From the IMG/VR virus record IMGVR_UViG_2917398303_000004, positions 1-40,414 of that record: a stretch of 40,414 bases of DNA. The stretch is one strand, 5' to 3'. A program made the position numbers and the translations under genes. The stretch comes from a virus. Lineage: Duplodnaviria; Heunggongvirae; Uroviricota; Caudoviricetes. Within the stretch, counting starts at the first letter, position 1; each line of letters opens with the position of its first letter. Shown here piece after piece: positions 1-34,372 of the stretch. The notes beneath the pieces are model-generated. The model saw only the letters and a program-made list of their open reading frames with translations, was not told where the DNA came from and did no database searches.

Positions 1-120
1 TTATATCACAGCAAACCCATGTGATGTCTCAATCACCAGGCTGTTAGCCGTAACTCCGCAGATCATATCAACATTCAGCTTTTTATCTACGTAGTCTTTT
101 GCTGGACTTGGAAAACCCAT
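1..120 (-). CDS. Short UmuD/S24-like N-terminal fragment (39 aa, MGFPSPAKDYVDKKLNVDMICGVTANSLVIETSHGFAVI)
   Basis: Own translation of the reverse complement of 1-120 (ATG at 120-118, TAA at 3-1); GFPSPAxDY motif resembles UmuD just after its Cys-Gly cleavage site; LexA box 19 nt upstream. Confidence 0.35.
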   Translation of the reverse strand: MGFPSPAKDYVDKKLNVDMICGVTANSLVIETSHGFAVI

Positions 121-137
121 AGAGCACACCTCACAAA

Positions 138-157
138 TACTGTTTATGCATACAGTA
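138..157. promoter_or_regulatory. Putative LexA (SOS) box TACTGTTTATGCATACAGTA
   Basis: Matches CTG-N10-CAG / TACTG(TA)5CAGTA consensus; palindromic; sits just upstream of the minus-strand short ORF. Confidence 0.55.
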
Positions 158-329: not shown

Positions 330-1439
330 GTGAGCAAAAGAATCGAGTTTGCAAACACGATACGAGGCGTTGCCAGCATGGTTGTTATGTTGGCTCATTA
401 CATAATATCGTTTAATGCCTTCTCTGGTGGCTATGGAGGCCTCCCAAAGATAGAAGGAGGTGTTTTTGATTATGCCTCTGGCCTGTTAGGTTTTGGGATG
501 CCAAGTTTCAGTTACGGAGCATTTGGTGTTGCTCTATTTTTTTTAGTTAGCGGCTTTGTAATACCATTATCTCTAACAAAATTAACAACTCAGCGGTATG
601 GTATACTTGCCTTCATGGTTTCACGAGTTCTAAGGATATGGCCCGTATATGTAATTGGTTTTTCCATATCTATGCTATTCCGATGGTTGTCATTCAATGG
701 CTCAGAACTTAGTGACGCCTACAACATTTATGATGTCATATACCACCTAACTCTTTTCAGGGATTGGATTGGCGGAATGCCTTTAGATGGTGTTGGCTGG
801 ACGCTTGAAATTGAGATTAAATTCTATCTGCTATCAGCAATATTTGCTTATGCGACGGTAAAAGGTAAGCAGTACATTACGATCGTTGCTATGGCAGGGG
901 CGTTTGCTGGGTACTACTTTGGCGTTCAGACGCCTATATATTTTATATTCCCGCACAGCATCCTGTATTGCTTCCAGTTCATACTGTTCATGACCATAGG
1001 CACTAACTTATACTTACTGTACGCTGGAGTGATCAGCAAGAACAAGGCCATACTATGGATAGGGGTGTCGTTAGGTTCATTTATTTATGTTTGCCCTCCT
1101 GATTCCAAAGTTGGATATCTTGTCGCATTTTTAGTGTTCCTGTCATGTTATGTCGCAAGAGATAGCTTTAATGGAGGTGCGATAACATCTTTCTTTGCAA
1201 AGATTAGCTACCCAATGTACGTTGTGCATGCTCTTTTTGGATATGTGACAATGTGGTACATGATAAATCTTGGTTTAAACACCTACGTCGCCCTGATTTT
1301 ACAAATATTGATGACAATATCGATATCATACTTAATGCATTTGTATGTAGAGATCCCCTCCCAAAAATATGGAAAAATCGCGTCTGACTTCATAACGGGT
1401 AGAAGGAAGGTAATTCCTGCTGGTATGGCTGTATCGTGA
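330..1439 (+). CDS. Acyltransferase family 3 integral membrane protein (O-antigen acetyltransferase-like lysogenic conversion candidate)
   Basis: 369-aa multi-TM protein, N-terminal R-G-x-A...LAHY motif typical of acyltransferase_3; GTG start; AT-rich relative to neighbours. Confidence 0.7.
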   Translation: MSKRIEFANTIRGVASMVVMLAHYIISFNAFSGGYGGLPKIEGGVFDYASGLLGFGMPSFSYGAFGVALFFLVSGFVIPLSLTKLTTQRYGILAFMVSRVLRIWPVYVIGFSISMLFRWLSFNGSELSDAYNIYDVIYHLTLFRDWIGGMPLDGVGWTLEIEIKFYLLSAIFAYATVKGKQYITIVAMAGAFAGYYFGVQTPIYFIFPHSILYCFQFILFMTIGTNLYLLYAGVISKNKAILWIGVSLGSFIYVCPPDSKVGYLVAFLVFLSCYVARDSFNGGAITSFFAKISYPMYVVHALFGYVTMWYMINLGLNTYVALILQILMTISISYLMHLYVEIPSQKYGKIASDFITGRRKVIPAGMAVS

Positions 1440-3701: not shown

Positions 3702-6419
3702 TTAAGCTACATTGCCGGGGTAGGAGGCATTGTCGTATTGATAGAAGGAGTCGCGGTATTCTTTTGCTGTAACCTGACATGTTCCGTCAGACTGCGGTGA
3801 AATCTCTGAGATTAGTGCGCTGTAACCAACACGTGAAGATTCGCAGAATATAAGGCGTGGAGGTTCGATAGATTGATCATTCAGTATGATGCCGATGAAC
3901 TCATCCTGTTCAGACACCGATAATTCATAATCACTAACCTTAGTAACTGGAAGCAAACCAGACGCTGAGCCATCCTGATAGCGAATTAACGCGCGCGGAT
4001 TGTTGAATGTCCAGTCAAGTGGTTCTGATACAGCGATAGTTGTTACACCACCTACAGTTCTCATATGATCAATCAAAGTGCTGATTGTTTTGCTACCTGG
4101 AATGTCATCAGTAAAAACAATTCGGTCGCCTACGTTATAGCAAAGCGCGTCCATTTCCGTGGTCGTGGTATGGGTCAAACGCTGCTGCCTGTACTTCATC
4201 AGCCTTCGCATGCCTATCTGATAAGCTCTGTCCTGATCAAGCACGCCATCAAGCGTATAATCTTCAACTTTAACTGGAGTAGGATTACCCGATGTTCTGC
4301 ACTGAACCGTCTCTTCAGCCCACGTAGTGCCATTAATGTAAGTGACATCCACGCCATCATAATCATCGGCTGATGGTGCAACGAAGGCCGTTTGAAGCGC
4401 TTCTGTCATTTCCTGCGGGCTAATGATTCCCGTCCACGTTTTCACCCCCTCCCTTCCAACAGAAGCCATACCATCAGACAGCAGGAAATAGCTTTTACCT
4501 GCACTGGTGACTTTCTGAAACATTTCAAGAGCGGAAACTGAGTCTGTTGTTGCGTAATCGAAAAACTCGCTATCAGGCGTCCAGTAAGATGATTCCAGCA
4601 TATCAATCGCTTCGTTATCCATCGCAAGCCCCAGCTCATTTCCAATGTGGTATAGCGCACCTGAAATGCTCCTGGAAATACCGGAATCATAAATGCGTGT
4701 GGCGACTACGTTGACACGGCGATCGGACTGAGCGGCAAGCTTTCCACCCGTTTCGACTGAGACAGCCATAGTGGTTACACCAGAGTATGATGATGGTCTT
4801 GAAAGCAACCTCCCCCTCAATGACTGCCAGTACATGTTATCCCTGCTGTTATCCTGACCTTGTTCGTTCGTTCTCCTGCATCTAACCTCTACCAAACCGG
4901 CTGATGCCAACGTGATACGCTCAGTAAAACCTAACCCATTAATATTTTGCTGATTGTAAGATCCAGTTTTGCTGGTCCAGCCTGAACCAGAACCGTAAAC
5001 ACGGTATTGAATTTCCCACTGAACAATCCTGTTCTGCTTCCTGCCCTTCTTGTTATACCCACAAATACCGTTTGGGAAGAAGAAATTGACCTCAAACATA
5101 TCAACGACTTCATTATCTGGACATGTGAGAAACGGCCCCATCCATTTATTGTTCTGATTTAATCCGTTTGCTTCAAAATCAAGCACTGTACGCGGCGTGA
5201 AACCTGGCCATTCCGGGTCAACAGCACCCTCTACAACACGCTGTAAAGTAACGGTGCTGGCGTCGATTTCCAGAATTTTATATTCGCTGCCTGAGTGCGA
5301 TACTGATAAACGAATGTATCCTTCAGGAATACCAGTAAATGCTGTTCCGGTTGCGCTTTCATACGCCAGAGCGATTGACGCCGTAACAACGTCTTCATCA
5401 ACAGGTTCTGAATGGGGGATGTAATCAGCAATGAAAAGCTGGTAATCGATACTGTTGTACCAGAGAGTAACTGGCATACCGATGTATGGAGCAATCTCTT
5501 CCAGTGTGTCACTGGTTATTCTGCTGTATGCGCCATCATTGGTGACAACATAAGAATCTGGAACAATCAGTTCAACAATTGCACCTTCTGTCCATGAGTC
5601 AGGAAGGTCGTTTGTATCAGTATTTCCATCGTCAGTACTAAGGCCGTTAAAGGTGATATCTGCACCAGATACCGTTAATGAATCTGCTACAACATCCTGT
5701 GTATCCGGGGCTGTCTGCGCCATATCAAGACCAGAACCAGATGCCGTTCCGCCTACTTCTGTTGAGTTGAACCAGTTTTCCGTTCGCTGATCACCGATAA
5801 TGTTCTGTCCTGGCTGATATACATTATAGGTAAACCCATCACCAAGAGAGGCGATTGGCGTTGACCCAACGCGAATGTCGCCATCACCAAATGAAAAACG
5901 GCCCATACCCAGCACCACAAACATTTCAACCGTCATTACAGTCGGATCATCAGTTGAGAATCTTGTTACTGGTTGCACTGCATAATCTGGATAAATACGG
6001 CTGCGACCAAATAACTCGCGTATCGGATCACCCAATTTCGCGTTATTCGCTTTAGCAGGATTTACATCAAGTGGATTACCTGTTCCTGATGAATAACCAC
6101 CAAGATCACCAACACCAGGAGCAAAGAATAAAGCGTAAGCTACAGACGCAACTGATACGGCAACTGCAATCCAGGCGAGAGCTACAGCACCGTAAGGAAC
6201 AGGATAAATTCTGACGTCGCTATCCGGGCTGATTGCGAACTCAAACCACGCCTGAGATGGAATATTTTTCCCATCAACGTCAATTGTGATCGGCTGTTTA
6301 ATATCAGGCTTATAGCCCTCTACTTTTTTTGACAGCCATTGATGTATGGTTATAGCGCCATGTTCATGTGTTTCCAGCGGTTCGCCGGGGATGCGGGAGG
6401 GGTAAATTCGGATAGTCAC
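3702..6419 (-). CDS. Tail tip / host-specificity (central fibre, J-like) protein
   Basis: 905-aa protein immediately downstream of NlpC/P60 tail assembly gene and upstream of tail fibre; start overlaps upstream stop. Confidence 0.6.
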   Translation of the reverse strand: MTIRIYPSRIPGEPLETHEHGAITIHQWLSKKVEGYKPDIKQPITIDVDGKNIPSQAWFEFAISPDSDVRIYPVPYGAVALAWIAVAVSVASVAYALFFAPGVGDLGGYSSGTGNPLDVNPAKANNAKLGDPIRELFGRSRIYPDYAVQPVTRFSTDDPTVMTVEMFVVLGMGRFSFGDGDIRVGSTPIASLGDGFTYNVYQPGQNIIGDQRTENWFNSTEVGGTASGSGLDMAQTAPDTQDVVADSLTVSGADITFNGLSTDDGNTDTNDLPDSWTEGAIVELIVPDSYVVTNDGAYSRITSDTLEEIAPYIGMPVTLWYNSIDYQLFIADYIPHSEPVDEDVVTASIALAYESATGTAFTGIPEGYIRLSVSHSGSEYKILEIDASTVTLQRVVEGAVDPEWPGFTPRTVLDFEANGLNQNNKWMGPFLTCPDNEVVDMFEVNFFFPNGICGYNKKGRKQNRIVQWEIQYRVYGSGSGWTSKTGSYNQQNINGLGFTERITLASAGLVEVRCRRTNEQGQDNSRDNMYWQSLRGRLLSRPSSYSGVTTMAVSVETGGKLAAQSDRRVNVVATRIYDSGISRSISGALYHIGNELGLAMDNEAIDMLESSYWTPDSEFFDYATTDSVSALEMFQKVTSAGKSYFLLSDGMASVGREGVKTWTGIISPQEMTEALQTAFVAPSADDYDGVDVTYINGTTWAEETVQCRTSGNPTPVKVEDYTLDGVLDQDRAYQIGMRRLMKYRQQRLTHTTTTEMDALCYNVGDRIVFTDDIPGSKTISTLIDHMRTVGGVTTIAVSEPLDWTFNNPRALIRYQDGSASGLLPVTKVSDYELSVSEQDEFIGIILNDQSIEPPRLIFCESSRVGYSALISEISPQSDGTCQVTAKEYRDSFYQYDNASYPGNVA

Positions 6420-20318: not shown

Positions 20319-20904
20319 GTAACCTCCATGCTCTACGTCTTTCTGTTCTTGGCTGATTGTCTCTGGCTGGTTCCACTGGCTGTCCGTCAGCGTGGTCAAC
20401 GAGCGAATAGCATGGATAGACAACAGGACCACCGTAAGCATCGCCTACTGCATAGTCTGCTGCTTTGCCGTGATTCCATTTATCCAGAACTCGCTTGATA
20501 TGCTGATGCGGTACGCTGTAGCAGACGCCATGGATCAGGCGTGGAAGTGTGATGTAATCCGTTCTGCTCTTATCTGCTGCGATTAGCTTTGATGCTATAT
20601 CGAGTTGATATTGTGGAGGACGACCAGTACCGAGATAGAAAGAAACCAGCGCATCAGGGAAGCGCTCAATCCACTCAGCGAGTTTGTTGGTGAACCCATC
20701 AACTGGAATTGCATCGTCTTCTAAAATGACCACTCGGCAAGACTGCTCTTCTGCCCATTCAAGAGCACGGCGGTGATTCCAGTTAGCACCGTTATCTCCC
20801 GTGTCGATAAGCAGTAATGCACCTATCGACTCTGCCAGAATTAATGCTTTTTTGTGGCGCAAATGGTGACCAACAACCACAAACTTTACTTGTGCCTCCA
20901 CCAT
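20311..20904 (-). CDS. Hypothetical protein, possible GT-A-like nucleotide-sugar transferase
   Basis: 197 aa; beta-strand/helix start KFVVVGHH and acidic VVILEDD segment suggest a DxD-type fold; overlaps both neighbours. Confidence 0.4.
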   Translation of the reverse strand: MVEAQVKFVVVGHHLRHKKALILAESIGALLLIDTGDNGANWNHRRALEWAEEQSCRVVILEDDAIPVDGFTNKLAEWIERFPDALVSFYLGTGRPPQYQLDIASKLIAADKSRTDYITLPRLIHGVCYSVPHQHIKRVLDKWNHGKAADYAVGDAYGGPVVYPCYSLVDHADGQPVEPARDNQPRTERRRAWRLHV

Positions 20905-27356: not shown

Positions 27357-28317
27357 GATCGATAAAACGAAATATCAGCTCAAGTTGTGAGCCGTATTTC
27401 TTCTCAAATGCCACGGTGTCATCATGAAGCTCCCGGTGATGCAGCCTGCACAACGGCAACACAAAGAGATCATGCGCTTTTGTACCCATTCCACCCTGAC
27501 CGTGGCCTATCAGGTGATGGGGGTCATCTGCCTGCTTGTTACAGCAGGCGCACGGCTGTGATTTAACCCAGCGCGTGTATTTCTCATTCTCCCAGCGACG
27601 GCGCTTAGGCCTGAGCATGAACGATTCCGGCGATTCATCATCAACCTTTATCGTCAGTACCTTTTTCGCCCTTTCCTGCAATACTTCTGTCGCTGCCGGA
27701 CGCGGAACAATGTCACTCTCCCGCATCACTGACTGATGCTCTTCTGGCTTCATTCCCATGGCTTTAGTAGCTATTCCTTCAGGGATGACATCAGCCAGGC
27801 CTCTTCGCACCATCCACCAGCAAAACTCAGGCAGGGTAAGCTGGTGGTCATCACTGAAGCCCAGCTCACGAAGCACTACAGATAAAATCCAGGATACCAG
27901 GTTTTCACGCGCTATGCCTGCCAGTCTTTCCGTGGTCTGATCACGTAATTGGTTATCACATGCCCAGCACAATCTGATTGAGCTTGGATGATGGCGAAAC
28001 AGCGTGAAATGCGGGCTGTGATAGTCGTTGTGGGGCCACTGACAGACGAATGAACACTCTAGCCACCTGTCCAGTGAGACAAGTCCACCAGCCCGCGCTA
28101 TCACCTTCTTGTTCTCAAACACGGCCTTCATCATTGGGTCTTCTGCCAGTGGTTGAGATGCCGGAGGGATTGCCCCTGTTGGGTATGTGGCGTAGTTCTC
28201 CGGCTCTTCTTCAATCAGTACGCGCCCACGTTTGAACAGGTACATCAGGTCAGGGCCGGGACGGAACAATACGATCCCCAGCCCGTTAGCAACTTCCGGC
28301 GTTAACAGTGCTCTCAC
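27328..28317 (-). CDS. DUF968-like protein with C-terminal His/Cys-rich (HNH-like) region
   Basis: C-terminal CACC...HHLIGHGQGG...LCRLHHRELH motif; common partner of Q in lambdoid prophages. Confidence 0.5.
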   Translation of the reverse strand: MRALLTPEVANGLGIVLFRPGPDLMYLFKRGRVLIEEEPENYATYPTGAIPPASQPLAEDPMMKAVFENKKVIARAGGLVSLDRWLECSFVCQWPHNDYHSPHFTLFRHHPSSIRLCWACDNQLRDQTTERLAGIARENLVSWILSVVLRELGFSDDHQLTLPEFCWWMVRRGLADVIPEGIATKAMGMKPEEHQSVMRESDIVPRPAATEVLQERAKKVLTIKVDDESPESFMLRPKRRRWENEKYTRWVKSQPCACCNKQADDPHHLIGHGQGGMGTKAHDLFVLPLCRLHHRELHDDTVAFEKKYGSQLELIFRFIDHALATGVLA

Positions 28318-28916
28318 GCTGCATGCCCCTTAGCAAGATATTCAACCCACAGGCCACCAATCCACTTCACCCCCTTTGCTGTGAATCGTGACTGGCTGAA
28401 GGCATAGTTTGATGCGTTCGTTGTTCCCGTCTTAACCTCAAAACGTCCCGCTTCAGTGTGTTGATGATACGGAGTCAGGACATTGTTAAGGCGGTACATG
28501 ATGTGACTATCAAGCAGGAAAAGACGGAACTCCGGCTCTTTAGCGTGGAGAAGCTTCGCCACCTGCCGGAACGTCATCGAACCAGTAGCAGTAACATAAC
28601 GGTCAACAAACTCTGCTTTCGGCGCGGCAACAGCCAGCTCTTCACTCAGGCGCTGTTTTTGCTCTTCCAGATCAGCAGCAAGCCGCAGAGCTTCAGAGAA
28701 GGATTGCGGAATTGCAGGCTTACTCTCCTGCTCCAGCTCAAGCCAGCGATCGATAATGCGCTTCCGAAGAATCACGTTATAGCCAGATACCAGCGTGAGG
28801 CATAAATCCTTAGGAAGATGGAAACATGGATAGGCTCTTCCCCTGTCATCCCGGTAATCTCCTAAGAACTCAGGAGATTGAATATTGAGCAAACTGAGCA
28901 TATTGGGCAATCTCAA
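28314..28916 (-). CDS. Rha-family regulatory protein with KilA-C-like C-terminal domain
   Basis: N-terminal YPCF...LVSGYNVILRKRIIDRWLELE and C-terminal FRQVAKLL...SNYAFSQSRF segments. Confidence 0.5.
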   Translation of the reverse strand: MRLPNMLSLLNIQSPEFLGDYRDDRGRAYPCFHLPKDLCLTLVSGYNVILRKRIIDRWLELEQESKPAIPQSFSEALRLAADLEEQKQRLSEELAVAAPKAEFVDRYVTATGSMTFRQVAKLLHAKEPEFRLFLLDSHIMYRLNNVLTPYHQHTEAGRFEVKTGTTNASNYAFSQSRFTAKGVKWIGGLWVEYLAKGHAA

Positions 28917-28986
28917 GACTGGTCATCGCCGGGAATCCCGGAGCGTTTTTAACGTTAATTAGTTGATTCATGCTCTTCTCCACTTG

Positions 28987-29376
28987 TCAGGCGGCTGCAC
29001 CCGCCATGGTTTCAAATCGGCTGATCGTTATCTCTACCCTTCCAGGCTTTACTACAGGCCCCCACTCGATTGCCATCCGTTTAACCTGACTGTCGTCTTC
29101 CCAGACTCTGGCATTCGTCAGTGCGTCGAACAGCGCTTTGTTGTAGTTGTCCAGATCCCGCCGTCTGTTATCTGGCGGGAAAAGAACTATGTTTACCTCA
29201 ACGTTGACGTTAACTGGTTTAGGTATACCGCCGTACTGCTCAACAACAGATGCGTAAACGTTCTTCTTGAACTTCCTACCCATCTCACTGATCAGATGCT
29301 TACCCTTTAACGCTCCACGGTCAGGGGACCGGTAATAGGTGTTAACTGTTGGCGGGAATGGCAACGTTAATTTCAT
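28987..29376 (-). CDS. rusA: Holliday junction resolvase RusA
   Basis: RRRDLDNYNKALFDALTNARVWEDDSQV matches RusA catalytic region; start at MKLTLPFPP. Confidence 0.85.
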   Translation of the reverse strand: MKLTLPFPPTVNTYYRSPDRGALKGKHLISEMGRKFKKNVYASVVEQYGGIPKPVNVNVEVNIVLFPPDNRRRDLDNYNKALFDALTNARVWEDDSQVKRMAIEWGPVVKPGRVEITISRFETMAGAAA

Positions 29377-29693
29377 GGCTGGACACCTCTCGCTTCCAGC
29401 CATGACAAGGCGCGTTCTCTTGAATCGCTATCACCGTTAATGAGTGACTTGATGATCGATATCGCGTCTACCTCATCGTTTGCTGAAATAACGGTAATCC
29501 CTCTGGAAACTCCAGGCGCAACTGAGATATATCCCTTCTTCGCTATGGCCTTCACATGCTCCGCTGCAGCGTTCGGTGATGAGCAACCAATCAGCCCAGC
29601 CAGTTCACATATCGTTGGAGGGAATCCGAACCGGCGCTGATAGTTCACGATCGAACCAAGTACTTCACTTTGTCTCACGGTAAGTTTGTTCAC
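29373..29693 (-). CDS. LexA N-terminal DNA-binding-domain-like protein lacking the S24 peptidase domain
   Basis: LTVRQSEVL...FGFPPTICELAGLIGCSSPNAAAEHVKAIAKKGYI...GVSRGITVI parallels LexA residues about 1-70; protein ends at 106 aa. Confidence 0.6.
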   Translation of the reverse strand: MNKLTVRQSEVLGSIVNYQRRFGFPPTICELAGLIGCSSPNAAAEHVKAIAKKGYISVAPGVSRGITVISANDEVDAISIIKSLINGDSDSRERALSWLEARGVQP

Positions 29694-29694
29694 T

Positions 29695-29946
29695 TCAGCG
29701 CTCCTTAATCTGCTTGTTCAGAATCCCGACTTCGAGATACAAATGAGATGGCGTAAAGCCAAGTTGCTTAACCATCCCCATGGCACCGTTAAAAATTGGC
29801 CTGGCTATTTCGTCACAATTCATACCTGGGTTAGCCTTGCGTTTAGCGGCTATTTCCTCGTTGCATCTTCTGGCGATGTTACGAAGCGCGTTTCGTGCTT
29901 CAACGTCCTGCATAAGCCACCTCCAGCAACGGAGCAGGTTTACCAA
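29695..29946 (-). CDS. Hypothetical protein
   Basis: 83-aa ORF (start uncertain) between methyltransferase and LexA-like gene. Confidence 0.4.
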   Translation of the reverse strand: MVNLLRCWRWLMQDVEARNALRNIARRCNEEIAAKRKANPGMNCDEIARPIFNGAMGMVKQLGFTPSHLYLEVGILNKQIKER

Positions 29947-30568
29947 CGTAACCAGGAAACATGATTACATCAGGGTTTTCTGCCTGATTTCCCCAGTGAT
30001 GCCAGCCGGGAACAGCACAGCGGCTGAACAACTCAATACGTGACACATCGCCGTATAATTGCTCCAGACGGTAACGCGCTTCTGCTGGCTTCTGGCTGTG
30101 TTCGCCGAGTGGGCTGTAGATAACCTGTTTTACGCTCGCGTTCTGACGCTCAAGACCTTTCCCTCTGGTGGCAATTAGCAGATCCTCGGTATTGGCACGG
30201 GTATAGTTACCACCGTTCATTCGGGTCTGAGCGTTCAACAGGTCGAGGAAGTCGTAAAAGTCCTCTACTCCACCAGCCTGAAGCGCTTTGTTGATGTGCT
30301 GCTCAGCCAGTGAGTTAAACTTCACCCAGGTGAATCCCTTCATGGTCCGAACCTTAAAACCCCATGCCTCAGCCAACTCAATCGCTTCGCGGGTGTGAGT
30401 ACCGGTGAACCACATGGCCAGAACGGAATCTTCCGCAGCCAGATCCCAGACAGGCAGGCGTTTTATGTCGATGAGTTTCATCGTGCCGTAATGGTTTTCC
30501 GCTGCTCCATTGCTGATGGTGTTCCCGTATTCCCACGGTGGATCGGCGTAAATCAGTGAATAGTTCAT
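29900..30568 (-). CDS. DNA N6-adenine methyltransferase, MT-A70 family
   Basis: DPPW motif (YADPPWEY) and HSQKP...ELFSR...PGWHHWGNQ segments. Confidence 0.85.
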   Translation of the reverse strand: MNYSLIYADPPWEYGNTISNGAAENHYGTMKLIDIKRLPVWDLAAEDSVLAMWFTGTHTREAIELAEAWGFKVRTMKGFTWVKFNSLAEQHINKALQAGGVEDFYDFLDLLNAQTRMNGGNYTRANTEDLLIATRGKGLERQNASVKQVIYSPLGEHSQKPAEARYRLEQLYGDVSRIELFSRCAVPGWHHWGNQAENPDVIMFPGYVGKPAPLLEVAYAGR

Positions 30569-31011
30569 TAACGGCCTCCCGAAAATCTACCAGCCAGATA
30601 GCATCCGTCTTCGGTAATAACTGCTGGTTTAGCCAGGCCAAGACAGCGCTGACGTTCCGCCAGAATAGCCGCCCTCTCTGATTCAATTGCTGATGCGCTG
30701 AACGCCTCCATGTAAATCGTCGCGGCACGATGAAAGAGTCCTTTCGACTCCAGACCTTTCGCCGTTTCCATCAGAGCACTTACTTCAGGAGTTGGTTCAA
30801 ATACCTCGAAGTGGCAATCTGCTGGCGGTTCTGCGTAGTAACGAAATTGGCGACCGTCACGTTTACGTGTTGCCAGTTCTGAACCATACAGGCGGCAAAC
30901 GGCGAGTTGGAGCCTGTCCTGGCTGAACTGGGTCAGACCTTCGATGATGTCCCTGGTCATTGAGCCGGGGTTCATGGCAATAAACATCTGGACCGTTTTC
31001 AGAATGCTCAT
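30568..31011 (-). CDS. Hypothetical protein in the helicase-loader (P) position
   Basis: 147-aa ORF translationally coupled to the O-like gene. Confidence 0.45.
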   Translation of the reverse strand: MSILKTVQMFIAMNPGSMTRDIIEGLTQFSQDRLQLAVCRLYGSELATRKRDGRQFRYYAEPPADCHFEVFEPTPEVSALMETAKGLESKGLFHRAATIYMEAFSASAIESERAAILAERQRCLGLAKPAVITEDGCYLAGRFSGGR

Positions 31012-31013
31012 CG

Positions 31014-31934
31014 TTACCCCCTGAACCCTGGTGGAATAGCGCTGTAATCAGTGTTCTTGAAGCTGGGTTTGAAGATGCCATCTTCACGGGCCCATTCCCC
31101 ATTCACTCGTTCTGGTCGGCCAGCTTTGTCCCAGTTATTTGCAGACTTGAGATATCCCGGGAACTTGGACGGCTGGAAAAGCGTCTGTGGTCGCAGGTAA
31201 TCAGACATCTTCAGGTCATCACCCCACTTCGCGTTGCAGTAATCCACCACCAGCGACAGCTCTTCAACGGTGAACCCTTCGCCGATTCGTGCCCGGATGT
31301 TTTGCAGTGACGTGTTTGAAACCTGGTAGCGTGAGTTCGTGACCTGGTTCAGGTGAACCAAAACCTGTTTAGCCTGATCAGTAATCAACACATCACGGTC
31401 TGGTTGCCCCGCAACCGGACAAGAGTCTTTACCTGTAATCTCTGTAGTACTCTCTGTTGTAATCTCTGTAGGATCATCAGTGCATTTTGACCTGATGACA
31501 GCGGTTCGTTTTGACTTGATGGAGCGTGTCACTTTGACCTCTTCCATCGTTTCATTTTGACCTGATGGAACAGCGCATTTTGACCTCTTCGATTCAGTCA
31601 CTTTGACTTCATCTAATAGCTCGCTTTCATAGTTGATTGTGTAGAAGTTGGTCATGTCGCGTTGAGACTTGTTCAGTTGTTCAATTTTGAGCACACCGAG
31701 GGTCTTCAGGCGGGTGAAGGTTCGCTTCAGAGTCGACTCTGACCAGAACGGGAACTGCTCCAACCACTGTTCAGTCGTGTTGTAAATCCAGCGAACACCG
31801 TCACGCTCCATGCCAGACGTTGTTTCTTTCAGCCAGTAGTTAATCTGCTGCAATGCAATCGCCTCATTCAGGCCAATGCTGTACGCAAGGTCAGGATTTA
31901 TCACTATTGGTCGGGATGTCATTAACAGGCTCAT
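31014..31934 (-). CDS. Replication initiator, lambda O-like, with conserved phage C-terminal domain
   Basis: C-terminal LVHLNQVTNSRYQ...EELSLVVDYCNAKW region typical of phage replication proteins; iterons embedded in the gene. Confidence 0.7.
   Translation of the reverse strand: MSLLMTSRPIVINPDLAYSIGLNEAIALQQINYWLKETTSGMERDGVRWIYNTTEQWLEQFPFWSESTLKRTFTRLKTLGVLKIEQLNKSQRDMTNFYTINYESELLDEVKVTESKRSKCAVPSGQNETMEEVKVTRSIKSKRTAVIRSKCTDDPTEITTESTTEITGKDSCPVAGQPDRDVLITDQAKQVLVHLNQVTNSRYQVSNTSLQNIRARIGEGFTVEELSLVVDYCNAKWGDDLKMSDYLRPQTLFQPSKFPGYLKSANNWDKAGRPERVNGEWAREDGIFKPSFKNTDYSAIPPGFRG
31430..31615. repeat. Origin-like iteron array inside the O-like gene: six copies of RYTTTGACYT at about 23-bp spacing plus two GTAATCTCTGTAG repeats
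   Basis: Copies seen starting near 31484, 31508, 31531, 31554, 31577, 31600. Confidence 0.6.
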
Positions 31935-32103
31935 TCGGACCCTCTATTTCCCTGAATTTACGCTGAAACTGTTCGAGAGGACTGAAGCACTCATGCTCGT
32001 ATCCGTCGCGCAGGTATATAACCCGTTGAGTTTCTGGCTCCCACCGGATAACCCTGACTGGGATGCCGTCGCTGTCTTTGAACCGTCTGTTGAGTGCTCG
32101 CAT
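31891..32103 (-). CDS. Hypothetical protein
   Basis: 70-aa ORF between cII-like and O-like genes. Confidence 0.4.
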   Translation of the reverse strand: MRALNRRFKDSDGIPVRVIRWEPETQRVIYLRDGYEHECFSPLEQFQRKFREIEGPNEPVNDIPTNSDKS

Positions 32104-32282
32104 TCGACCTTCTCCGCCTGGCCGTTGAAATCACCTACAACCCAATCGGCAAACTGGTAGCAGACAGGCTCAAAGCATCCGGATACCATTACCCCATACA
32201 CGAACTGCGCCGGACCTTTTCCACCCGGCATAGGTCGAGCAATAAGTTGCGACCTGCGGTACTGTGTTGTTACACTGTTCAT
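31944..32282 (-). CDS. Hypothetical ORF (overlaps 31891-32103 in another frame; only the 5' part may be genuine)
   Basis: ORF track only. Confidence 0.2.
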   Translation of the reverse strand: MNSVTTQYRRSQLIARPMPGGKGPAQFVYGVMVSGCFEPVCYQFADWVVGDFNGQAEKVECEHSTDGSKTATASQSGLSGGSQKLNGLYTCATDTSMSASVLSNSFSVNSGK

Positions 32283-32496
32283 GCGTTAGTTTCTCCACTG
32301 AATACGACACGCCACGACGCCAGGAGCTGCACACTCGCTGGCGTCACTTCTTTTGACGGCGGCTGAATAAGGCCACAATCGCGCGAATTTCTTCTTCACG
32401 TGCTGCCAGATGGCGGCGGTGCTGTTCCTGAATTTCTTCGGCTTCATGCTTTTCAATCACTCCATCCTCAAGCGCCTTCTGGATAATCTGATCCAC

Positions 32497-32838
32497 CTAC
32501 CCTCTTGCAGCTGCTGTACGCATTGCACGACTGAACAAATCAACACGGTCAAGATCTTCCAGGCTTGGTACGTCCACCAGCAGTGCGCCGCGACGCTTGG
32601 CAAAGTAGTCGGCAACGAATGACGTGTTGGAAATGTCCTCCATCGCTTCCAGCTCAGTGACCTCAAAGAAACGACAACCGTTTTTCTCGTAAAGGTTGTT
32701 GTTGAATTGGGTTTCTGACATGCCCAACGCACCAGCCATAGCCTGACGGCCTCCGGGGTACGCCTTACACATCGCTTTCACCACGTCTTTCAGGGTTTGC
32801 TCTACCATCTTTTTTTTCCTTTGGTAGTTATCAATCAA
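32497..32838 (-). CDS. cII-like regulatory protein (HTH)
   Basis: 113-aa ORF immediately downstream of cro; AMAGALGMSETQF HTH-like segment. Confidence 0.45.
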   Translation of the reverse strand: MIDNYQRKKKMVEQTLKDVVKAMCKAYPGGRQAMAGALGMSETQFNNNLYEKNGCRFFEVTELEAMEDISNTSFVADYFAKRRGALLVDVPSLEDLDRVDLFSRAMRTAAARG

Positions 32839-33097
32839 CTAAAAGTTGCGTACTGTTGGGCTGTACCGGTAATCCATCATGTTTATTTGGGTAAATATCT
32901 GGTCGTAATTGATGTGGCGTTACAGTCCATCCACCCCACTGACATAACTGAATTACCCTTTCTGAAGGGACTCTGTTTTTCGAAATCCAGTTCGCAACTG
33001 ATTGAACTGACTGAAATTCGAATTTTCTTGACACTTCAGAAATTGAGCCAACCGCTTTAACAGCTTTAGCGGTGACATTCTTGTGTTGATCTGACAT
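32831..33097 (-). CDS. cro: Cro-like repressor (YdaS/Cro family HTH)
   Basis: Start at MSDQHK with GGAG Shine-Dalgarno 5 nt upstream; divergent from cI. Confidence 0.6.
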   Translation of the reverse strand: MSDQHKNVTAKAVKAVGSISEVSRKFEFQSVQSVANWISKNRVPSERVIQLCQWGGWTVTPHQLRPDIYPNKHDGLPVQPNSTQLLVD

Positions 33098-33128
33098 GTT
33101 ATCTCCAGTGACTAAGCTTGCATCAATA

Positions 33129-33141
33129 CTACTTATAGTAG
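33129..33141. promoter_or_regulatory. OR operator palindrome CTACTTATAGTAG
   Basis: Inverted repeat CTACT-N3-AGTAG in the cro-cI intergenic region; same motif recurs at 34000-34012. Confidence 0.55.
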
Positions 33142-33166
33142 CAATTATTGGCAACTTAAAATAGAA

Positions 33167-33886
33167 ATGACAACTATGCCTTGTGCGCTTAATCTTCTAC
33201 TTATGGTGGAAAATGCTAAATACAAAGACTTTGCCGACAGGCTAAACAAGTCTCTCCAAGAGCAATCAATTGGAGTTAAAGAATTGTCAGAGTTCAGTGG
33301 TGTCTCATATGAGATGGCGCGACGCTATACTCTTGGTACTGCAAAACCACGAGATGAAAAGATGATTCGAATTGCAGACAGGCTTGCCGTATCCCCTGCT
33401 TATCTTGATTACGGGGTACCTGTTAATGGCGGTGATGCGCCCGCTACCGGGACGGTTAGAATTCAGCAATTGGATGTACATGCATCAGCCGGTTCGGGAT
33501 ATATCAATCAACCGTTTCCAACGATTGTCAGCTCGATAGAAATACCAGAAGATAGGATTTTCGAATTGTTTGGCCGGAGAAGCTTAGATGGTATCGTGAT
33601 GATCAACGTAGATGGCGACAGTATGATGCCTACGTTGTGCCCTAAGGATCTGCTCTTCATTGATAGTAAAGTTGAGCAATTCAGTGGAGATGGTGTTTAC
33701 GTGTTCAACTTCGAGGACAGTACCTTTGTAAAAAGACTACAAAAAGTTAAAGGTCGTCGTCTGGCTGTCCTATCAGACAATGAACACTATCCTCCCTTCT
33801 TCATAGAAGAACACGAAATGAATGAGGTTTACATCTTCGGCAAACTTATCAGATGTTTACCTCTGAAAATGATAGAGTTTGGATAA
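33167..33886 (+). CDS. cI: CI-like repressor (HTH plus S24 LexA-type autopeptidase domain)
   Basis: N-terminal HTH, C-terminal GDSM Ser motif and downstream Lys; possibly leaderless start at 33167. Confidence 0.8.
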   Translation: MTTMPCALNLLLMVENAKYKDFADRLNKSLQEQSIGVKELSEFSGVSYEMARRYTLGTAKPRDEKMIRIADRLAVSPAYLDYGVPVNGGDAPATGTVRIQQLDVHASAGSGYINQPFPTIVSSIEIPEDRIFELFGRRSLDGIVMINVDGDSMMPTLCPKDLLFIDSKVEQFSGDGVYVFNFEDSTFVKRLQKVKGRRLAVLSDNEHYPPFFIEEHEMNEVYIFGKLIRCLPLKMIEFG

Positions 33887-34019: not shown

Positions 34020-34372
34020 CTATTCACCAACAGCAAACAGCCAATCACGGTAAGCATCTCGCAGGGTTCTTACCGGGACTGGAAGAGTTACCACTTGGAG
34101 ACGGTCCTTTTAAATGTCCTGGACAGTGGCGGTACCAGCACCGATAACAGCGGCAGACGTTAAACTGTAAAAACGGAGAGATGCCAGCTCCCTCGACGGC
34201 AGTGACGGCGGGAAGTAGACCGCTGACAGCTCGGAAAGACGAGCACACAACGATGAGAACATTGACGAGCAAGGCATAAAGGCAGGTTCAATTCCTGCCA
34301 CCAGCATAATAATGGTGGTGATGGGCAGGGAAAAGGTCCGTTCAATTCGGACACCGGCAGTGTTCTCTTCGT

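Follow-up and report, generated by a model that had tools for sequence, protein, structure and literature searches.

A LexA-type DNA-binding domain with a tail of its own, encoded directly upstream of rusA in a lambdoid prophage: a candidate uncleavable binder of SOS boxes

The virus record IMGVR_UViG_2917398303_000004 of IMG/VR, studied here over its whole length of 40,414 nucleotides (the window), contains a lambdoid prophage in which a short gene directly upstream of the Holliday-junction resolvase gene rusA encodes a 106-residue relative of LexA, called below the LexA-like protein. This protein consists of a LexA DNA-binding domain followed by a conserved tail foreign to LexA. Its best conserved residues are those with which LexA reads DNA, and its gene seems to belong to the early-right operon of the prophage. 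With a probability put at roughly 0.45, it is tentatively proposed that the LexA-like protein is an uncleavable, early-made and RecA-insensitive SOS-box binder of the LexA type, which would dimerise through its own tail and act at a time when host LexA is depleted. All coordinates are those of the window, and residue numbers are those of the LexA-like protein unless LexA is named.

A LexA DNA-binding domain fused to a different tail

An earlier note on this DNA had described the gene product as a stand-alone homologue of LexA's DNA-binding domain and had called for a profile search as a check. Profile, sequence and structure comparisons all bear this description out. The Pfam family PF01726 (LexA_DNA_bind) matches residues 1-65 over its full length (profile positions 1-65 of 65), with 64.9 bits for a cut-off of 23.7 and an E-value of 5.6e-18, and it is the sole Pfam match in the protein. 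In a phmmer search of the PDB, residues 1-74 align without any gap to residues 1-74 of E. coli LexA. The AlphaFold model can be superposed on the LexA-DNA crystal structure with a root mean square deviation of 0.7 Å over 68 residues showing 47% identity. The fold is thus a winged helix-turn-helix superposable on the LexA N-terminal domain. On another hand, the Pfam search reveals no Peptidase_S24 domain in the protein and its sequence contains no Ala-Gly cleavage site. The NCBIfam equivalog model for lexA, TIGR00498, is matched at its positions 1-90 of 203 only, with 61.1 bits against a cut-off of 110.95. Judged from its sequence by the equivalog cut-off, by the S24 domain with its Ser/Lys dyad and by the cleavage site, the LexA-like protein is not a bona fide LexA repressor.

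The earlier note had also stated that the protein stops before the cleavage site and the S24 domain. It is correct that neither is present, but the protein is not a plain truncation, because a conserved tail of about 36 residues of its own follows residue ~70. Residues 70-106 align with neither the linker nor the C-terminal domain of LexA; over residues 1-74, the E. coli LexA sequence used for this comparison is consistent with that of the PDB alignment. The tail is conserved throughout the family, with A95 and L99 invariant, and its helices are predicted by AlphaFold with a predicted local distance difference test score of 70-90 for the block. The tail has no sequence match in the PDB and no structural match covers it. 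As far as the sequence can tell, the LexA-like protein is therefore not simply a truncated LexA but a LexA domain fused to a different, conserved two-helix tail, presumed to be a dimerisation or partner-binding module.

Conservation of the DNA-reading surface

According to PMC13416735 (citing Knegtel 1995), E. coli LexA contacts DNA through S39, N41, A42, E44 and E45, and PMC5999292 describes N41 as contacting operator position 15. Conservation of the corresponding positions was counted over 131 tail-carrying members of the family, whose overall identity ranges from 36 to 99%. Three residues are found in 100% of them, namely S39, N41 and, in the wing, R64. A42, A43, K53 and G65 follow with 99%, H46 with 98% and P40 with 92%, and position 45 is occupied by Glu in 71% and by Asp in another 19%. 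The predicted DNA-reading surface is the most constrained part of the protein, which elsewhere has drifted to 36-60% identity. This strong constraint on the LexA contact residues is the main argument that the family may read CTGT-type half-sites.

Expression from the early-right operon

In the window, the late and tail genes of the prophage are carried by the minus strand and the integrase gene runs off the right end. Between 26.7 and 33.2 kb, the order of the genes is DUF1133/Q-like gene, DUF968/HNH gene, Rha/KilAC gene, rusA, LexA-like gene, small open reading frame (ORF; PHROG 303), MT-A70 methyltransferase, PerC-like activator, Phg_2220_C replication protein and cro/cII-like genes, up to a divergent cI. 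The genes separating the pR-like promoter pair next to cI (Table 1) from the LexA-like gene abut or overlap, and this interval contains neither another promoter-like site nor anything resembling a terminator on the minus strand. From this arrangement we infer that the LexA-like gene belongs to the pR early-right operon and would be on during infection or after cI cleavage and off in the lysogen. Because neither promoter nor terminator intervenes and cI carries an S24 domain, expression would coincide with an active SOS signal. With such pR-type expression and no intervening promoter, the LexA-like protein is expected to act after derepression or on other elements. Tuning of the induction threshold of its own prophage, as formerly suggested, is consequently not expected, since placement in the early operon implies action after commitment.

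The gene begins with a GTG at 29693-29691, 1 nucleotide past the TGA of the upstream small ORF. At its other end, its own TGA (29375-29373) and the ATG of rusA (29376-29374) overlap as ATGA, which agrees with the translational coupling to rusA claimed in the earlier note. The true start of rusA is the methionine of MKLTLPF... at 29376 rather than that of the longer listed ORF, as homologues begin at the same place (MNKLT, MNELT, MIELT). Coupling of the LexA-like gene to rusA is therefore real, although such stop/start overlaps are generic along the operon.

The Rha/KilAC antirepressor-type gene following rusA (28314-28971, minus strand) is broken. Its first ~24 residues (MNQLINVKNAPGFPAMTSLEIA...) are in another frame than the remainder, and ~20 residues are missing by comparison with locus L012, where the homologue is intact. 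A pseudogene or a sequencing error is the probable explanation.

Table 1. Coordinates of the LexA-like gene and of other features considered in the text (window coordinates, except for the SOS boxes of relatives, given in the coordinates of each locus)
Feature	Position	Strand	Basis or remark
LexA-like gene, 106-residue LexA DNA-binding-domain-only protein	29373..29693, stop codon included	-	ORF list, Pfam PF01726, PHROG 362, near-identical genes named by PGAP
Residues 1-68, winged helix-turn-helix	29490..29693	-	predicted helices 6-22, 28-35, 40-52; wing strands 56-58, 66-68
Recognition helix (counterpart of LexA alpha3), residues 39-52, SPNAAAEHVKAIAK	29538..29579	-	ungapped alignment to LexA SPNAAEEHLKALAR
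C-terminal extension specific to the family, residues 69-106	29376..29489	-	two predicted helices, 71-86 and 91-100
Shine-Dalgarno sequence AAGGAG of the LexA-like gene	29701..29706	-	read from the sequence; 7 nucleotides 5' of the GTG start
rusA, Holliday-junction resolvase	28987..29376	-	Pfam RusA, E 2.8e-16; ATG overlaps the LexA-like stop codon
pR-like promoter pair adjoining divergent cI, presumed source of the LexA-like transcript	33126..33173	-	only minus-strand sigma-70-like sites in 28800-33300
cI, HTH_3 and Peptidase_S24 domains	33167-33886	+	divergent; Pfam
Canonical SOS (LexA) box TACTGTTTATGCATACAGTA, candidate target, in any case a host-LexA site	138..157		23.7 bits; exact CTGT-N8-ACAG
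UmuD'/HumD-like ORF	1..120	-	17 nucleotides downstream of the SOS box; stops after 39 codons, TAA at 3-1; relatives have 106 residues
SOS boxes on the rusA stop in relatives L008, L010, L015, L017-L021, L023-L027	~4685-4704
SOS boxes on the rusA stop in relatives L064, L065	4675-4694

The SOS box of the window and the search for operators

SOS boxes were scored with a matrix based on 27 published E. coli boxes, which do not come from a curated collection. The LexA box to which the earlier note had drawn attention, at 138-157, is real. Its score of 23.7 bits is one that the true E. coli boxes underlying the matrix also reach, whereas the best score of shuffled sequences averaged 12.1 (50 shuffles). 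It is the sole strong SOS site in the 40.4 kb, the next best reaching 10.3 bits, no more than expected from the shuffles, and also the only ACTGT inverted repeat of the window at spacings 0-20. This box is a typical host-LexA-controlled moron promoter for the UmuD'/HumD-like gene located at the prophage end. It is not evidence for an operator dedicated to the LexA-like protein, which would bind there only as it would at any of many SOS boxes.

An operator of another design was looked for in the same sequence. When the CTGT and ACTGT inverted repeats of the window were counted at other spacings between 0 and 20, none stood out as enriched. The palindrome CACANNTGTG, of the type recognized by the GIL01 protein gp6 (see the last section), occurs nowhere in the window. 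In the early region, no recurrent inverted repeat was found, the search yielding three unremarkable pairs. Overall, the window gives no sign of a private operator, and nothing but the canonical SOS box matches.

On the opposite strand, an ORF encoding 369 residues is located at 330-1439 (plus strand), between the UmuD-like gene and the tail genes. In a related E. coli prophage, the matching position is occupied by the O-antigen modification genes gtrA/gtrB, and the ORF may thus serve lysogenic conversion.

SfV and mEp390, two other phages that carry the LexA-like gene, likewise have a single strong SOS box each. In SfV (L108), it is located at 34170-34189, at the start of the orf48 DNA methyltransferase gene, between Q and the lysis genes. 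In mEp390 (L109), it lies at 20706-20725, upstream of a DinI-like gene near attP.

Family, distribution and annotation

The LexA-like protein belongs to PHROG 362, a family labelled 'transcriptional repressor', with an E-value of 7.6e-44 (residues 1-105 on positions 1-105 of a profile of 106). By tblastn, the gene was found in 63 phage records with 37-59% identity, including SfV (orf42), SfII, SfIV, mEp390, mEp460, cdtI and many Stx2a- and Stx2c-converting phages. In these records, it is annotated as 'repressor, lexA family', 'LexA-like protein' or 'LexA DNA binding domain protein'. E. coli genes with 95-99% identity are called 'LexA family protein' by the Prokaryotic Genome Annotation Pipeline (PGAP), which also uses 'LexA family transcriptional regulator' for near-identical chromosomal copies. 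Only 7-9 of 5,426 complete E. coli genomes contain the allele of the window, the closest named relatives of which come from Citrobacter. The SfV-type sister allele is present in 2,233 of the same 5,426 genomes (41%), with up to 4 copies per genome; it is nearly always flanked there by a phage Dam gene on one side and rusA on the other. Hundreds of viral contigs carry an intact gene, and the length of the protein remains between 104 and 112 residues across 36-99% identity.

An exhaustive HMMER search among 1.84 billion representatives returned 4,105 proteins with E-values up to 0.001, many of them short stand-alone LexA-domain proteins. Many database proteins of 140-260 residues (P0051, P0054, P0058, P0065 and others) match the query in two separate stretches. 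These proteins appear to carry tandem LexA DNA-binding domains and, if their sequences are read in this way, could act as single-chain pseudo-dimers. A scan of a genome collection with an alignment of three sequences gave a single genuine member of the family; about 20 further loci matched the DNA-binding-domain stretch only and are probably host lexA genes. No PADLOC match to an anti-phage defence system was obtained for the LexA-like gene and its neighbours. In literature searches, no functional study of the enterobacterial LexA-like family was found. The LexA-like gene is an ordinary member of a common and already annotated family.

Genomic neighbourhood in relatives

The context of the gene was compared in 80 IMG/VR loci that carry it. 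In 79 of them, rusA lies directly 3' of the LexA-like gene with the same 4-nucleotide overlap, and the remaining genes of the neighbourhood vary. The 5' neighbour may be the PHROG-303 ORF with MT-A70, Dam, a replication protein or a PerC-like gene, and rusA may be followed by Rha/KilAC, KilA-N or DUF968. SfV and mEp390 likewise have the LexA-like gene directly upstream of rusA. In a single locus among the 80 (L028), the LexA-like copy is disrupted. The same RusA subfamily occurs in Salmonella phage ST64B coupled straight to dam, without a LexA-like gene, and 326 of the 406 phage RusA records fall below 60% identity and represent other subfamilies without a LexA-like gene. The LexA-like gene and rusA travel as a cassette, and their linkage is read as co-inheritance of an optional insert rather than as an obligatory partnership.

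A distant Klebsiella clade, with an N-terminal extension in the protein, shows another order without rusA: dinI, an ORF, the LexA-like gene, an ORF encoding 67 residues (PHROG 1212) and DUF968. It is represented by L087 (2380-3587, Klebsiella pneumoniae ATCC 13883) and L004 (Klebsiella phage ST846-OXA48phi9.1). The dinI gene of this clade, two genes upstream of the LexA-like gene, has an SOS box of its own (25.2 bits).

SOS boxes also occur next to the cassette. In 15 of the 79 rusA-linked loci, a box of 17-23.6 bits (e.g. AACTGTATAAACATACAGGT) is located exactly on the rusA stop, about 100 bp before a KilA-N or Rha/ANT antirepressor-type gene. Among the loci with 95-110 bp between rusA and that antirepressor-type gene, 15 reach 16 bits or more and the remaining three 12-15 bits; none of the loci in which rusA and the following gene abut has an SOS box at the rusA stop. 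This suggests that LexA-controlled antirepressors lie directly 3' of the LexA-like/rusA cassette in those relatives. Both the box on the rusA stop and the dinI arrangement point to SOS biology, but neither proves a functional link, and the window itself has neither of them.

Proposed mechanism and alternative explanations

In the mechanism that may be envisaged, the LexA-like gene would be transcribed from pR, within the nin-region part of the early-right operon, after infection or cI cleavage, while host LexA is depleted. The protein would fold as a winged helix-turn-helix of the LexA type and retain, in recognition helix and wing, the residues with which LexA reads CTGT half-sites, and its 36-residue two-helix tail would substitute for the LexA C-terminal domain as an oligomerisation module. 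SOS-box-type operators would then be occupied by a protein that RecA*-stimulated autocleavage could not remove. Repression would be re-imposed in this way, during lytic development, on LexA-controlled promoters, such as those of host SOS genes and of phage accessory genes under SOS control, among them the UmuD'-like gene behind the 138-157 box, and also on LexA-controlled antirepressors or lysis functions of co-resident elements. The first two of these steps are supported by the sequence and by structure prediction, and those from oligomerisation onwards are put forward by inference.

The idea of a non-cleavable competitor at SOS boxes, advanced in the earlier note, remains plausible. It fits with the retention of the contact residues, with the timing deduced for the operon and with the activity of the isolated LexA N-terminal domain. 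According to PMC10584840, this isolated domain keeps some SOS-box binding and repression, and ClpXP must degrade it for full SOS induction. A stable, self-associating version of it would be an uncleavable repressor. The persistence of the gene in hundreds of viral contigs, together with that of the sister allele in 2,233 of 5,426 genomes, is counted as a sign of selection in favour of this function, as is the location of relatives beside SOS-related elements (boxes on the rusA stop, dinI). Of the earlier interpretation as a whole, the structural part (winged helix, missing peptidase, coupling to rusA) stands, whereas tuning of the threshold of its own prophage is not expected.

Several observations weigh against SOS-box binding. 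SOS boxes are common in temperate enterobacterial phages anyway. Among the 131 family members, position 44 is never Glu (Ala in 82%, Asn in 10%), so that one LexA contact is lost, and R28 of LexA is replaced by Ile or Met. As a result of these two changes, affinity or exact specificity could differ from those of LexA. The presumed oligomerisation module also differs from that of LexA, which calls for caution about the spacing of half-sites. In the searchable literature, no experimental DNA binding by a member of the family was found. Moreover, GIL01 gp6, the only characterised phage protein of the LexA-domain-only type, is an activator with its own operator (PMC6182141).

This last case inspires the main alternative explanation, in which the LexA-like protein would be a phage-specific transcription factor, its captured LexA domain having been re-targeted to a private operator, unlike SOS boxes in sequence or spacing, from which a phage promoter would be activated or repressed. 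Such an outcome is judged unlikely. There is a precedent in gp6, a phage LexA-domain-only protein activating from a distinct palindrome (PMC6182141), and the systematic loss of Glu44 with the replacement of R28 would agree with a changed specificity. A new dimerisation module could alter the spacing of half-sites, and the PHROG label says merely 'transcriptional repressor'. However, the recognition helix of gp6 has diverged, with a critical new K38, whereas the LexA contacts are the best conserved positions here. In addition, no candidate operator is apparent in the window, be it an enriched CTGT palindrome at spacings 0-20, a gp6-type site or a recurrent repeat in the early region, and late transcription in a lambdoid phage is already explained by Q, a DUF1133/Q-like gene being present. 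If a private operator nevertheless existed, the LexA domain would have been put to a new use by a phage for a second time, independently of GIL01 gp6.

The remaining explanations dispense with transcriptional control. The 4-nucleotide overlap with rusA in 79 of 80 loci in spite of a variable 5' neighbour, the pairing of three LexA-like clades with three matching RusA clades, and the fact that this RusA subfamily mostly adjoins a LexA-like gene in the phage collection could indicate a partner of RusA, for instance a DNA-targeting or regulatory subunit kept in fixed ratio by translational coupling. This is improbable in view of ST64B, where the same subfamily is coupled to dam without a LexA-like gene, of the Klebsiella clade devoid of an adjacent rusA, and of about 326 phage RusA genes of other subfamilies that do without it. 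RusA works alone as a homodimer, stop/start overlaps are the rule along the whole operon, and the strongest constraint falls on DNA-reading residues. This same constraint makes it very improbable that the protein is a decoy, the tail or winged helix of which would bind host LexA, RecA* or a phage cI or antirepressor to modulate cleavage or induction without sequence-specific recognition of DNA, as a protein that does not bind DNA would hardly keep S39, N41 and R64 invariant. Moreover, the phage protein lacks the C-terminal domain, in which LexA has its dimer interface and its RecA-binding surface. A decoy would still be in line with the modulation of SOS by mobile elements through protein contacts, as for GIL01 gp7 with LexA (PMC6182141) and for DinI (PMC7556043), with a conserved tail lacking any homologue among PDB sequence and structure matches, and with relatives adjoining dinI or antirepressor genes. 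Finally, two thirds of LexA are missing and one copy in 80 (L028) is disrupted, as might be expected from a decaying, functionless remnant of a captured host lexA. This view is hardly tenable. The length of 104-112 residues is held across 36-99% identity, a specific tail foreign to LexA is conserved, the gene is intact in hundreds of viral contigs, 41% of complete E. coli genomes possess the sister allele and the ribosome-binding site is strong. The conservation pattern already effectively refutes it.

Coming back to the uncleavable SOS-box binder, a more far-reaching version can be imagined, in which the phage would encode an SOS 'super-repressor' that, after lytic commitment, re-silences the host SOS regulon as well as the LexA-controlled antirepressors, colicins and toxins of rivals. 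This version is possible but rather doubtful. If it were true, lytic development would no longer depend on how the host responds to damage, and competing prophages would be held down. In E. coli, the induction of prophages, the release of Shiga toxin, error-prone repair and antibiotic tolerance are all driven by SOS induction. Carried by a large share of E. coli prophages, Stx2a and Stx2c phages included, a LexA-type domain beyond the reach of RecA would add to SOS control and to competition between prophages a layer that has gone unrecognised.

Comparison with known systems

The N-terminal domain of E. coli LexA (PDB 1lea, 3jso) has the same fold, a near-identical recognition helix (SPNAA-EH-KA) and a near-identical wing (SRGI). 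Unlike the phage protein, LexA possesses a linker with the Ala84-Gly85 site and an S24 domain with its Ser/Lys pair. In the phage protein, a 36-residue two-helix tail stands in the place of the C-terminal dimerisation domain, E44 is changed to Ala and R28 to Ile. The genetic settings differ as well, as lexA is an autoregulated host gene and the LexA-like gene is part of a phage operon. Another parallel may be drawn with the N-terminal fragment left by LexA cleavage and with LexA(Ind-) mutants. All of these have LexA DNA-binding activity beyond the reach of the RecA* switch-off, a property that the phage protein would share to judge from its sequence. The fragment is however cleared by ClpXP through a degron exposed by cleavage, and the C-terminus of the phage protein is different (…RGVQP).

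In its proposed role, the LexA-like protein would resemble GIL01 gp7, DinI-like proteins and PsiB, which are phage- or plasmid-encoded tuners of the host SOS response. These proteins act by contacts with LexA or RecA and not by operator occupancy (PMC6182141; PMC7556043), and they are not homologous to the LexA-like protein. Within the family, SfV Orf42 and the proteins of mEp460 and of Stx2 phages have 44-59% identity, the same tail and the same place directly upstream of rusA. The window carries a different allele, with MT-A70 and a small ORF as upstream neighbours instead of Dam.

GIL01 gp6 is a truncated LexA homologue from a tectivirus of Bacillus thuringiensis, which binds its own palindrome GaCACAnnTGTGaC via K38 and activates the late promoter P3 (PMC6182141). 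Its C-terminal extension is limited to 14 residues and forms a wing, whereas the phage protein studied here has an extra helical tail and keeps host-type contact residues. The operator of gp6 overlaps the -35 element of a late promoter, and the window has no site of this type. The LexA-like gene, for its part, is located in a lambdoid nin region, where late genes are controlled by Q and where a Q-type antiterminator gene is indeed present. With these differences in mind, gp6 may be considered as the closest CHARACTERISED analogue, and it shows that proteins of this kind can be functional transcription factors and need not bind SOS boxes.
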